Positions 10,959-51,861 of a stretch of DNA of 64,000 nt are shown here, one piece after another. The notes beneath the pieces were generated by a model. That model made no database searches, had not been told where the DNA came from, and saw only the letters and a program-made list of their open reading frames with translations. The DNA comes from Octopus sinensis (Eukaryota): positions 47,678,001 through 47,742,000 of the forward strand of contig NC_042999.1 of assembly GCF_006345805.1 (NCBI RefSeq). The letters are read 5' to 3'. Each line of letters opens with the position of its first letter. Within the stretch, counting starts at the first letter, position 1. The position numbers and the translations under genes were made by a program.

Positions 10959-11416
10959 TGTATGTACGTATGTATATATGTATTATGTATATATATACTC
11001 TCTCTTTTACTGTATTACTTGTTTCAGTCACTTGAGTGGGGCTGTGCTGGAACACCGCCTTTTGTCGAACTAATCTATCCCAGAACTTATTCTATGTAAG
11101 CCTAGTACTTATTCTATCGGTCTTGCCAAACCGCTAAGCAATGCTGGGGGACAAACACAGACACGCAAACATATACACACACATACATATATGAATATAT
11201 ATATATAATGATAAATCGCAGAGCGAGTTATAAACAGTAGCAGCAACACATCGTGACGTATATTTGCCATTTGAATATGGCTAACCCCTAAGGGTGGATG
11301 CTACTGTAGTTTGTAGCCGCAGGAGGACACCTCCTCTAGCTGGCTATAGACACACTTTCTCTGCCCTATCAGTATTTGCAAAGGGAAGCCATCCTTCCCG
11401 TCTTCAACTTATGATA

Positions 11417-11461
11417 CACACGGACTCGAGTTTCAGGGTATTGACCCGTCATCGGTGTGTG
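11417..11461 (-). ncRNA. Minimal type I hammerhead ribozyme (CCGAUGA variant)
   Basis: Reverse complement: cacaca CCGATGA cgggtcaataccct GAAA ctcgag TC cgtgtg; stem I has an A-C mismatch next to the core. Confidence 0.65.
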
Positions 11462-11555
11462 ACAATCATAGTTGCCGATGAGAAGTAGGTTCCCTTCACA
11501 AATACATATACCTTTCCCAGTATCGATTGACACATATATTGACAAATATGATTGT

Positions 11556-11600
11556 CACACGCCGATGACGGGTCAATACCCTGAAACTCGAGTACGTGTG
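11556..11600 (+). ncRNA. Minimal type I hammerhead ribozyme (CCGAUGA variant)
   Basis: cacacg CCGATGA c-ggg tcaata ccc-t GAAA ctcgag TA cgtgtg: 6-bp stem I, 3-bp stem II, palindromic stem III ACTCGAGT, GUA cleavage triplet. Confidence 0.75.
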
Positions 11601-12717
11601 TATCATAAGTTGAAGACGGGAAGGATGGCTTCCCTTTGAATATACTGATAGGACAGAGAAAATGTATCTATAGCCAGCTGGAGGAGGTGTCCTCCTGGGG
11701 CTACAAACTACAGTAGCATCCACCCTTAGGGGTTAGCCATATTCAAATGGGAAATATACGTCACGATATATATATATATATATATATATATATATATATA
11801 TATATATATATATATATATATATATATATATATATATATATATATATATATATAATATATATATATATATATATATATATATATATATATATATATATAT
11901 ATATATATGTATGTATATATATATATATATATATATATATATATATATATATAATATATATATATATATATATATATATATATATATGTATATAGGACTG
12001 TTTTCTTCCAGTTTCCGTCTACCAAATCCAGTCACAAGGATTTGTTCGGTGAGACTATAGTAGAAAACACTTGCCCAATGTGCCACGTAGTGGGACTGAA
12101 CCCATGAACCATATGGTTCGTAAACAAGCTACTTACCAAAGAGCCACTCCTACGCCTATGTATGTATGTATACATGTATTTATGTATGGATGTATGTATG
12201 TATGTATTTGTGTATCTATACACCATTTCATACATAAACATAACCGTACTTATATGTGAGTTCCAACGGACCTGCGACTTAATAAGCGTGTGTACAAAGG
12301 TTTATGGGATGATTTACTGATTGCAAAACCATGAGTGTAGAATGAGTTATCAAGATCATATTTATGAATGTCATTTGTAAAATTTAAATAGTAATAAGTA
12401 TGTCTCTACGACGATAACAGCATTTCTGTTTTTTTTTTTTACTTTTATGCCATTTATACGCATAAATTCAATCTGAGACACACACACGAGCGCGCGTACA
12501 CACACACGCACAAACATACATACACTAATACAAACGCGCAAATACATAGATGTAAATGTATGTATGTATATATATATATATATATATATATATATATATA
12601 TATATATATATAATATATATATATATATATATTATATATATATATTATATATATATATATATATATTATATATATAATATATATATATATATATATATAT
12701 ATATATATATATATCTT

Positions 12718-13042
12718 AAAAAGACTCCGCCGGTTACGACGACGAGGGTCCCAGCTGATACGATCAACGGAACAGCTTGCTCGTGAAATTAACGTGCAAA
12801 TGGCTGAGCATTCCACAGACACGTGTACCCTTAACGTAGTTCTCGGGGATAATCAGCGTGACACAGAGAGTGACAAGGCTGACCCTTTGAAATACAAGTA
12901 CAACTCATTTTTGCCAGCTGAGTGGACTGGAGCAACGTGAAATAAAGTGTCTTGCTCAAGGACACAACGCGTCGCCGGGAATCGAACTCAAAACCTTACG
13001 ATCATGAGCCGAATGCCCTAACCACTAAGCCACGCGCCCTCA
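12718..13042 (-). mobile_element. SINE family 3 (gagggcgcgtggcttagtggttaggg head, CORE-like block)
   Basis: A box tggcttagtgg, B box gagttcgattcc, tgtgtccttgagcaagacacttta block; inserted in (TA)n; related copy at 47380. Confidence 0.85.
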
Positions 13043-48244: not shown

Positions 48245-48680
48245 GTTTAAATATACACTGTATTTATAAGAATAATATAGAGTCTATTGACGAAATTTTT
48301 ACACGCTAAGCCACTGGTAGTAGAAATTTTTAATATTTCTTATTACACTTGATATTATTAATTATTTATAATTTTTCTGGATAATTCCTAGCTAATTTCG
48401 CCTAGTAAATTATTTCATTTGCTTAAAATGTCTGAAGCCACGGTCCAGGAATTAGATGGTAAATGTTTTTATTTTCCATTCCCTTCGAAGTTTTATCACT
48501 GATAGTGGTTTGGAATTTAACTGTTCTTTCTAGCGTGTATGATGAATGCCTCTTAGTTGTTTAAATGTACGCTGTGTTTATATGAATAACACATAGTCAA
48601 CTGATTAAATTTTTACACGCTAGGCCACTGGTAGGAGAAATTCCTAATATTTCTTATTACCCTTGATATCATTAATTATA
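48245..48680. repeat. Two ~120-bp direct repeats about 315 bp apart
   Basis: gtttaaat.tac.ctgt.tttata...aaatttttacacgcta.gccactggtag.agaaatt..taatatttcttattac.cttgatat.attaattat at 48245 and 48560. Confidence 0.8.
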
Positions 48681-48709
48681 CATGCATATATATATATATA
48701 TATATATAT

Positions 48710-49093
48710 ATATATATATATAAACGGCAGTTTGTCTGTGCGTGTTTCTGTGTGTCTGTTTGCTTGTACCCTCACCCTGACCACGGCTTTCAACCGATTC
48801 TGATGAAACTTGACACACACATAGCCCAATGTCATAATTCAAAACTAACGCAGCGAAAATTTTGAAAAGTTCCCCCAGTTCTGAAAAAAATCAATAAATT
48901 CGACATGGGGTCTAGAATCAGAAACACAAACCGCAAACTGTCTAGGGGACGCAACTCCACCTTTTTTAACTAAAAAAAAAATTTACCATCATCTTTTTTC
49001 CATTGTTTTTGCTATTTTTTGGCTATAACTCTCTAAAAATGCTTTATAGTTATTTCCCTTACAAACCTGTGCAACGCCGGGCGATACTGCTAG
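48710..49093 (+). mobile_element. Non-autonomous Helitron
   Basis: tatatataaa...gtttgtctgt...aaccgattctgatgaaacttg 5' module; 3' gcaacgccgggcgatactgCTAG|T end like that at 36758-36781; 5' end lost in (TA)n. Confidence 0.7.
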
Positions 49094-51476
49094 TATATAT
49101 ATATATACACGCACGCAGGTATTTCTGTTCTTTCCATTGATATATTTTGCTCTGTCGCTTTTTCAAAGAAGACAGTTGAGGGTAAGTCATATTTCTCATC
49201 ATTGCTAATCTGTTTAAGGCGCTTTATTATCTGACATTGAAAATATCTGGAGCTCCATGAATGATAGCATTAACTCTGCTCGTTTGTGCTAATTTATTTA
49301 GCATAGTAACTATTATGATGCCAACTATGATTAATTATTTTGCGGAATGGTAGAAGAAAAACGGCTGATAATATTTTAAATAATTTTCAAATTACTTCAG
49401 ACTGATGTTGACATGTTTCCGTTTCATAGATCCTCCTCACTGAAGCATATTATTCATGTCTTTGATGAAGTGGTAATGAGAGAGACTGTATATATTGGTG
49501 ATATTTTAGACTGATCGCATTAATCACTAAGTGGTATTGTCTTTATTCCCCTGTTCCAGTTTGGATTATACAATTACTGCGCTTAATTTCTATAGAATAC
49601 AGGCAATAGATTTCAAATGAAAATCTCACAGACTGACAAACACACACACCAACACACATGCACTAACACTCACACACGTACATGCACAAAGATTCAATGA
49701 TTATATATATCGATACCTATCTACAAACCCCCACACATACACACACACACAAGATCATTATAGTTATGAATAATGTATGTTGTATGTCATATTCTGCTCA
49801 GGCAGAGTAGTTGGTAGAGGAGTAGTTAACTCACCATGTAATCTACGCATTATTGTTTGGCTATATTGTGTTCACGTGGCAAATAAAATCCAGGAAGAAT
49901 GTCTTTCAATTTCTGCGGTCATGGAATTTGAATTTACCTTTGAATGCTGTGCTCAACTTTAAAACCTTTAACTAATTATTAATACTAAATTGATACTATA
50001 ACCATAATTATCTAGTATTAAGCTAAGATTCATTAATATTCATTGATATCAAATACCATCAATGTTTGACGGTAGATGATGTAGCTATGATGACTAAGCA
50101 TTTAGATGACCTTTTGTGATGACCAAATCTTTAGTAAATTCTTAGATAGATACAGAAGTTACGTTCTCATTACACAAGATAAATTTTGAATGATACGTAT
50201 CTGTTTTCAATTCTTACCCAAATAATTCATTTTCAATTTTTCAAAACTCAACAGTGTTGTCTTTTTTTTTTTTTTTGTTTTCACGTATATACGAATCTCC
50301 TGAACTTTATTTACATTTGCACGTTCTCCTGAACTTTAAATACATTTGCACGTTAAAATAGGAATTATTTGTTGTAACGTTATAGTATGATTTGAAAATA
50401 TGCCTTCGTATTCATGTTTTATTTCAGGTCATGTTCCCTATCATAACTGGTGTATTCTGAATTTATTCAAGAGATTTATGAAAACACATTATGTATTATT
50501 TACTAAAGAATATGACAAGAATCATGCCAGTAAAACATTAAGAAAATATAATTCCAAAATTACCATTTATAAATTTTAATAATAAATATTTTGTAGTAAA
50601 ATGAAATAATATATATATAATTGCTGAGCATATTATAACAGCCGATAGTTTTATTGCTAAGGCGATTATATAATTCAAAACAAGATTTAAGTATTCTTTC
50701 ATAATTGAACGCCATATAAAATACTTGATATTATTGAAATTTAGATATCATACGAAGTTTGAATCGCTGATGTTGTTTACAGATATTGCTGAATAAAAAG
50801 TTTCGAGGAGTTATTGATTACATTTCAAGGAAGGAATCTCAAACCATGCAATAATATTCTAATTTTGTTGAATAACATCGATATGACCGAAAAAGAGGAA
50901 AACATTATTTTGCTATTATTCCATTTGTAGATAATACCTGATTTAGGAAAGCATCAAGTATGTTATTTATGCCTTTAGTGTCTGATTTGCATAGAAAGTT
51001 GTAATGTTATGGACCTTCATATTTGCATGATTTTATGTTACGCTGTCTTGTTTGTGTATCTCTTTATCGAATGAATGCAAAGTTGTTATCTCGTAAGTCT
51101 AATGAAGTAAACTTATTATATCATACCTGACAGACGCAGTCAAGTCGTTTGATAAGGAGGACCACTTATAATATTTTTCGTCCAAGCATATACATAGAAG
51201 CACGTTCACATATATGTATATCTATCACTAACCCTAATCATCTATATTTTTACACACACAAACACACTTACACACACGTAGAAAGACACACACACGGACA
51301 CGCACACGCAGGCACACGCACACACAAGCAAATACATATTTAGACAGAGATAGATAGACACAGATATATAGATGTACGAATGTATGTTATTAAATTCAAC
51401 CTATTTGTTACCTGGTATCTATCTCTGTATCTATCTCTCCATATCTCCATCTGTATATATATATATATATATATAT

Positions 51477-51861
51477 CGATGGGCGAATGAATTATCCTAT
51501 GTTTACCGTCAACATGGACAATTCGATGAACCGATACCAGGGTAGCAAATTCACGTCAGAAACACGGTTGAAGGTAGAATCTCCGGGTTCATATGCAGAA
51601 ATTTGTGTGTTATATATGAATAAATAAATAAATGGAGTTGAACTAAGATGTTAATAAAATTCCTTTACTTTCGACATATGTTTCGAAGACAAAAGGGTTT
51701 TATTCCAAAGGAATGAACGGTGAAAGATGCAATCTTCTCATGAGGAAAGAAAGGGAGCCTTTCTCAACAAGACAATATAATAATTACGATGACTCATGCT
51801 ATATGTCGAAAGTAAAGGAATATTATTAAAATCTTCGTTCAACTCCATTTATTTATTTATT
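51477..51861. mobile_element. HHR foldback element D (short arms, long tail)
   Basis: Inverted arms 51619-51679 and 51801-51861; ~140-bp unpaired left tail; (TA)n on both sides. Confidence 0.75.
51668..51749 (-). ncRNA. Minimal hammerhead ribozyme with G5C core change (probably inactive)
   Basis: Reverse complement: ctttc CTCATGA gaaga [~43 nt] tcttc GAAA catatg TC gaaag; palindromic stem III ACATATGT. Confidence 0.7.

Follow-up and report, generated by a model that had tools for sequence, protein, structure and literature searches.

A stretch of 64,000 nucleotides (nt) of the Octopus sinensis genome (NC_042999.1, positions 47,678,001 to 47,742,000; hereafter the window) contains five elements with hammerhead ribozymes, which we read, with a probability of roughly 0.8, as the truncated ends of four Hydra-clade Penelope-like elements (PLEs) together with one copy of a retrozyme family, family 1, likely inserted in trans by a PLE. 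By motif comparison, elements 2 to 5 are 5′-truncated ends of four coding Hydra-clade PLEs. Element 1 belongs to a family which is, by its unit size, hammerhead fold, tandem layout free of open reading frames (ORFs) and GC content, a retrozyme of the type without long terminal repeats (non-LTR). A first-pass annotation had seen in these elements a shared inverted design, in contrast to the tandem one of described metazoan retrozymes; family 1 is itself tandem, like the retrozymes already described, and the inversion is a by-product of insertion. The proposed non-autonomy applies to element 1 only, since families 2-5 are ends of coding PLEs, and the absence of ORFs is true of the copies in the window but not of the longer copies of families 2-5.

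Inverted arms are present at 11250-11479/11538-11767 and 33215-33587/34489-34861, as are those of elements 2 and 4, and the (TA)n flanks of the elements were likewise found in the sequence. Among the five elements no similarity exceeds chance-level matches. Their layout is given below (pLTR, pseudo-long terminal repeat; UTR, untranslated region).

11209-11546, minus strand: element 1 long arm, positions 14-351 of the ORF-less 352-nt tandem unit of family 1
11209-11249, minus strand: element 1 tail, 42 nt, part of the long arm
11417-11461, minus strand: element 1 left-arm type I hammerhead, C at core position 4, stem II base unpaired
11538-11767, plus strand: element 1 inverted arm, unit positions 81-310, short end; hammerhead 11556-11600
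11768-11990, no strand: (TA)n target tract; the element 1 flanks form one composite repeat, in which a TA tract occurs there without the element
14980-15143, minus strand: element 2 short arm, short end; hammerhead 15048-15095
15166-15505, plus strand: element 2 long arm, short end, made up of the final 340 nt of a coding Hydra-type PLE (3′ UTR/pLTR)
33146-34487, minus strand: element 3 long arm, with tail (33146 to about 33214), pLTR and microsatellite-rich 3′ UTR of the family-3 Hydra PLE
33232-33282, minus strand: element 3 long-arm hammerhead, within the pLTR
34496-34861, plus strand: element 3 inverted arm, short end; hammerhead 34794-34844
43382-43677, minus strand: element 5, solo 5′-truncated end of the family-5 Hydra PLE, short end; hammerhead 43418-43511
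51477-51794, minus strand: element 4 long arm, tail (51477 to about 51610) and pLTR of the family-4 Hydra-type PLE
51668-51749, minus strand: element 4 hammerhead, mutated core
51801-51870, plus strand: element 4 inverted arm, 70 nt, short end, 3′ part of the ribozyme only

The arms of element 1 overlap by 9 nt, and its left hammerhead has a predicted cut after 11423. Five loci carry the flanks of element 1 joined without the element, four of them with (TA)4 or more in between, so the TA tract pre-existed. In element 2, the right arm is the long one (83% to locus L165) and both arms are without a tail. Element 3 consists of the final 1.34 kb of a coding family-3 element and a 366-nt inverted arm, the 900 nt between its arms being 3′ UTR of the coding element. 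Element 5, earlier described as a solo ribozyme abutting (TA)n at 43419, in fact terminates about 35 nt past the ribozyme, near 43382. No PLE ORF lies within the window.

When a strict type I hammerhead descriptor was applied to the window, a single core was returned, that of element 5. A relaxed descriptor, defined after the sequences had been viewed, allows one unpaired position at the stem II base and tolerates C or G at core position 5 and one mismatch in the first stem I pair; it gives seven type I folds, compared with a mean of 0.4 and a maximum of 2 in 40 block shuffles. The type I design claimed to be common to the elements is thus supported under relaxed rules, with some copies damaged: the first stem I pair of the element 1 left-arm ribozyme is mismatched, the right-arm ribozyme of element 2 is degenerate and escapes even the relaxed descriptor, and the core of element 4 is broken by C for G at position 5, where family-4 copies have G. 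The stem I sequence is distinct in each of the five families, yet paired in every one. Intact-core matches were present in 24/30, 14/30, 30/30, 20/30 and 28/30 loci of families 1-5, counts that are upper bounds because a few matches come from other families in the flanks. Of the 150 (of 296) Rfam matches listed for the window, none was to a hammerhead model, nor was any hammerhead found at gathering score in six loci, and single-strand folding z-scores of eight ribozyme regions were weak (-1.8 to +0.35) and uninformative.

Each element proved to be one copy of a genome-wide family, with 2,310, 2,099, 1,385, 2,094 and 1,223 first-look candidates for families 1-5, respectively; per search, the best 40 of 1,200-3,000 candidates were scored, and 30 loci per family were fetched. 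Within each family, copies vary in their 5′ ends and have one of two fixed 3′ ends, here called short and tailed. The suggested TA targeting is borne out by a TA run no more than 31 nt from the terminus in 58/70, 20/39, 52/53, 39/43 and 33/38 cases (families 1-5), as against 12-16% of background positions, the family-2 figure being low partly because the reference stopped short of the tail end. Foldbacks are one of several layouts: most copies are solo or tandem, and an inverted arm occurs in 5/30 family-2, 9/30 family-3 and 9/30 family-4 loci, with differing junctions. Family 3 is partly very young, some copies being 99-100% alike. The large ribozyme repertoire foreseen for this genome is evident in these multicopy families. 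In addition, the flanks of L001-L150 hold several more unrelated type I hammerhead families, so the repertoire is larger than the six families studied.

The short 3′ end of families 2-5 coincides with an internal TA-rich motif (L044, L134, L247), and priming there may therefore use pairing with the target. Junctions between families were also seen: family 1 joined to an inverted family-2-like end (L020:1791-2000), a long family-5 copy whose 5′ end bears a family-1-like piece (L167:2971-3105), and a family-4 end with its tail immediately ahead of a truncated family-3 ORF (L185:655-901). These chimeras may possibly be template switches between RNAs or nested insertions.

The link to PLEs, which had been proposed from the ribozymes, is supported by long flanks and protein search, in which families 2-5 run upstream into ORFs for reverse transcriptase (RT) and endonuclease. 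The family-3 full-length copy in L247/L248, about 5 kb long, shows in order an inverted pLTR with tail, a pLTR-tail-ATG segment, an ORF with one frameshift, a 2.55-kb UTR and a short pLTR; L154 is also ORF-linked, and L173 retains an open frame of 652 amino acids (aa). The family-2 end lies downstream of the endonuclease in L165, family-4 ends follow the ORF in L159, L160 and L113, and family-5 ends follow it in L252, L254 and L255, the ORFs upstream of these three families being broken or partial. The single ORF linked to the ribozyme end, recognised by motifs, encodes an RT followed by a C-terminal GIY-YIG-type endonuclease. DKG is replaced by DKT in families 3, 4 and 5, the families examined, and at the position matching the N-terminal RWK motif families 3 and 5 read RWR and RWA, respectively. 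No CCHH motif is present; CxxC and CxH flank the conserved E and N, one family-5 copy having S as the last C. A CxCX5C linker precedes the endonuclease in families 2, 3 and 5; neither family 4 (L159) nor the relative of it in L014 showed one. Families 2-5 share (TA)n insertion and a hammerhead inside the pLTR, and by eye the proteins match the alignment blocks of PMC8557442.

Some features of these PLEs deserve separate mention. Family 4 (L159:7250-7900) and a relative (L014:1-774), in which no cysteine linker was seen, nevertheless end at (TA)n (39/43 ends of family 4), a poor fit to the proposed link between linker and TA targeting. The 3′ UTR of family 3 (L247:8380-L248:931) is about 2,550 nt long, 1,632 nt of it in CA/TA/TG runs, and accounts for the excess of this 5.0-kb element over the <3 kb typical of the Hydra clade; the UTRs of families 2 and 5 are similar. 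A CCHH-type PLE endonuclease of another clade is also found in the genome (L155:3691-4446, Pfam GIY-YIG match).

Family 1 is organised differently. Its 352-nt unit ends in a tail that runs directly into the start of the next unit, and arrays of 7.2, 7 and 5 units were found. The 7.2-copy array has a period of 350 and a mutated ribozyme core, and a subfamily with a fully canonical core forms intact, dispersed arrays of 5-7 units (L288:1209-2885, L289:786-3292; GC 0.42-0.43); this subfamily would be the best candidate for an actively cleaving retrozyme. The longest ATG-initiated ORF of the family is 57 aa. Assembled contigs from four sequencing runs presumed to be RNA include the family-1 unit, but they reveal neither its start, end or strand nor a cut site, and they count neither as support nor as objection. 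Unit starts are preceded by the family's own tail in 43 of 52 cases, and by tail fragments, TA or inversion junctions in the other nine. The exact ribozyme pattern matches the genome 1,370 times and its reversed control 0 times, with covarying stem II variants. Compensatory changes occur in 20 of 88 predicted pairs among nine units (0/500 shuffles), a result that is supportive only, since the structure was derived from the same related sequences. In the fetched loci, related subfamilies of 350-357 nt, with identities between about 90% and 66%, likewise form tandem repeats without ORFs. The lineage comprises five or more subfamilies, 66-95% alike, with >1,300 exact ribozyme matches.

One sister family, family 6 (L258-L287, e.g. 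L262:1162-2063; L290:1354-1984), is an ORF-less 357-nt tandem repeat, 66% like family 1, with 2,449 first-look candidates and U for C at ribozyme core position 3. The two-end rule described below is followed by 10/10 of its classifiable foldbacks.

Alternatively, family 1 could be the pLTR of a rare coding PLE that was missed, or could be spread by a Neptune-type PLE, by a long interspersed element (LINE) or by local tandem amplification. This is favoured by the negative partner search: no coding partner was found in 63 family-1, 30 family-6 and 16 related-ribozyme loci, the sampling being shallow (best 40 per search) and the ORF matches at those loci having been inspected in L014 and L015 only, where they lie in neighbouring elements. 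The CCHH-type endonuclease at L155 offers a further possible mover. Two candidate leads were set aside: the Hydra ORF beside family 1 in L014/L015 is part of a different family, which provided the TA tract that served as target, and the search for a coding parent through the 66% relative and through ribozyme variants gave only further ORF-less tandem units. However, foreign coding or UTR sequence precedes the unit in 0/52 unit starts, and the related tandem families of 350-357 nt (66-90% identity) show the same behaviour. Unequal crossing-over would not yield what is seen, namely dispersed arrays with inversions and with ends at the two fixed positions. We therefore regard these alternatives as improbable, and insertion of the family-1 retrozyme in trans by a Penelope-type enzyme as likely.

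The mode of insertion is indicated by the foldbacks. Simple two-ended foldbacks of the six families were counted after complex clusters with more than two termini and flank-identical duplicates had been dropped. Both ends lay at fixed positions in 54 of 67, and 53 of these 54 paired one short with one tailed end; in the three families first sampled without the tail, the figure was 20/21 (p about 1e-5 against a half). Computed with one arm pair per insertion, discordant arm variants amounted to 1/86 in family 1 against 28% on permutation, 5/53 in family 6 against 36%, and 11/106 in family 5 against 33%. Where the arms adjoin directly, most junctions show an overlap of no more than 5 nt or a small gap, and the arms differ in their 5′ extent; either arm may be the tailed one or the long one. 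In vitro, both strands are cleaved and extended by a purified PLE, and the two RNA sites at which it starts delimit the tail (PMC11167929). From the one-tail rule, the shared donor variants, the small overlaps and this in vitro system we infer priming from both cut ends. The endonuclease would cut both strands of a (TA)n tract, and each cut end would prime reverse transcription on RNA from one donor, one at the upstream start site to give the short end, the other at the downstream start site to give the tailed end. The two complementary DNAs (cDNAs) would stop at unrelated points and be joined through a few bases of overlap, leaving two arms with outward-facing ribozymes. We consider this account, in which both cut (TA)n ends prime at two sites of one donor RNA and the truncated cDNAs are joined, moderately probable. 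In the twin priming of L1 elements, inversion also arises by priming from both target strands. There, the arms copy different parts of the RNA; here, the same part is copied from two start sites. A broader statement, that the genome holds long-lived retrozymes of about 350 nt inserting with the full PLE signature and with coordinated, PLE-specific twin priming across six families, is one that we favour by a slim balance. Ribozyme cleavage is not required for insertion in the in vitro system (PMC11167929), so the ribozymes may here be passengers of the end repeat.

The mirror arm might instead be produced by self-priming or fold-back of the nascent strand, arm identity being kept by copying or gene conversion. 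The variants shared between arms are compatible with this, as are some junctions with overlaps of 9-34 nt or with an internal hairpin at their centre (L001, L002, L258), and self-priming was argued for palindromic junctions in PMC3846280. However, most adjoining junctions overlap by at most 5 nt or gap slightly and the 5′ extents of the arms differ; moreover, it is not evident why a copied arm should stop at the other fixed end, and the tailed or long arm can be either one. Self-priming thus seems to us an unlikely origin of the foldbacks. The view that they form a distinct non-autonomous class spreading as inverted-arm units, suggested by four foldbacks of common design in 64 kb and by window copies without an ORF, is very improbable, being refuted by breakpoints that vary from copy to copy, with a different junction in every independent copy, by the solo or tandem layout of most copies, by the reach of families 2-5 into ORFs, and by the finding that identical foldbacks occur only in L107, L109 and L110, which share their flanks as well and are therefore duplications.

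Several observations weigh against the proposal that Hydra-clade ends and a PLE-inserted retrozyme are joined by priming from both cut strands. Pfam and PDB gave no relevant match to the Hydra-type ORF, and the assignment to the clade therefore depends on motifs compared by eye. TA binding is weaker in family 6 (16/46 ends). The sole exception among the 54 classifiable foldbacks is element 2 of the window, which is short-short; 13 of the 67 simple foldbacks have an end at neither fixed position; and a looser count gives 48/52 one-tail foldbacks, with three tail-tail pairs in complex or internal junctions. For families 3, 4 and 6 the tail was part of the query, so that short-short pairs were disfavoured. 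Arm concordance is weak in family 4 and undetectable or untestable in families 2 and 3, and where present it could also come from gene conversion. Finally, the tails measure 42-146 nt and exceed the described 30-40 bp.

Much of this layout is known from the published literature. Inverted copies with truncated 5′ ends, a tail on one end only and a preference for TA belong to the usual features of PLEs (Arkhipova et al., 2013, PMC3846280; Craig et al., 2021, PMC8557442). The Hydra clade is defined in section 11 of PMC8557442 by DKT, CxCX5C, CxxC-E-N-CxH and the absence of CCHH, and its supplement lists Hydra-1_Obim, an octopus Hydra family with (TA)n preference. The elements described here resemble this clade in their RT and C-terminal endonuclease, in DKT, in CxxC/CxH around E/N without CCHH, in the CxCX5C linker (families 2, 3 and 5 only), and in the end-repeat hammerhead, (TA)n insertion, partial tandems, inverted 5′-truncated copy and tail at one end (PMC8557442). 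They are different families from Hydra-1_Obim, whose listed ribozyme differs. They depart from the clade in the length of family 3, which reaches about 5 kb through its 2.55-kb microsatellite-rich 3′ UTR whereas Hydra elements are generally <3 kb, in tails of 66-146 nt, and in family 4, which is TA-ended yet apparently without the cysteine linker.

Pairs of ribozymes on opposite strands 100-700 bp apart have been read as truncated PLEs (Cervera and de la Pena, 2014, PMC4209133), and the present elements share with such ends the unpaired base of stem II, the palindromic stem III and the tail on one inverted pLTR (PMC4209133, PMC3846280). The layout was described there; here it is counted (53/54) and tied to donor variants. 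Published work treats retrozymes as tandem units for which PLEs are the probable means of movement (Cervera and de la Pena, 2020, PMC7229834; Li et al., 2026, bioRxiv 10.64898/2026.07.22.740005), and family 1 is like the metazoan non-LTR retrozymes in its ORF-less units of about 350 nt with 42% GC, its range from monomers to multimers, and its one type I hammerhead per unit (PMC7229834). Its unit length falls in the 150-450 nt, and its GC content below the 50%, by which such retrozymes are defined. In both sources the PLE link is based on co-occurrence and on homology to the pLTR, whereas family 1 displays the insertion signature itself, consisting of two fixed ends, a tail, 5′ inversion and a TA target. 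Chlamys MRC1 likewise represents non-autonomous head-to-tail PLE derivatives, but the Chlamys elements are without canonical hammerheads (PMC8557442). An octopus repeat annotation of 2026 lists 31 Penelope-like families as recently active (PMC13282606), and the words ribozyme, Hydra and retrozyme are absent from its main text.

Inverted truncated copies, the one-sided tail, (TA)n targeting, opposite-strand hammerhead pairs and an octopus Hydra family are thus all published, and the elements are not a new class. What appears to be new, in the literature searched, is a retrozyme with the PLE signature and the counted one-tail rule. No report of such a retrozyme was found, although an earlier annotation may exist, Repbase and most subscription papers having been outside the search; nor was a count of the one-tail rule found, of which subscription sources outside the search may hold an earlier description. 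If true, the former would be direct genomic evidence of PLE enzymes carrying retrozymes, and the latter would mean that, in PLE integration, priming takes place on both cut target strands in coordination, at two different fixed sites of the RNA. The families provide a large natural data set for tandem and inverted PLE insertions with a one-sided tail and for the mover of animal retrozymes, and the one-tail rule, together with the two fixed ends of the retrozyme, leads to sharp predictions for the existing in vitro PLE assay. The microsatellite-filled 3′ UTRs suggest that these elements may both target and spread simple repeats in the genome.

Elsewhere in the window, three inverted copies of a common repeat resembling a short interspersed element (SINE), unrelated to the ribozyme elements, lie at 44151-44380, 45585-45781 and 46920-47149, and a weak tRNA-like Rfam match on the minus strand (12968-13037, 29.5 bits) is probably a SINE head. 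Four further segments (56413-58375, 53977-54489, 61568-62837 and 34907-35440) are ORF fragments that we take to be from non-LTR retrotransposons, presumably including types with RT and restriction-like endonuclease beside trinucleotide repeats and a piece of the apurinic/apyrimidinic (AP) endonuclease type next to element 3.

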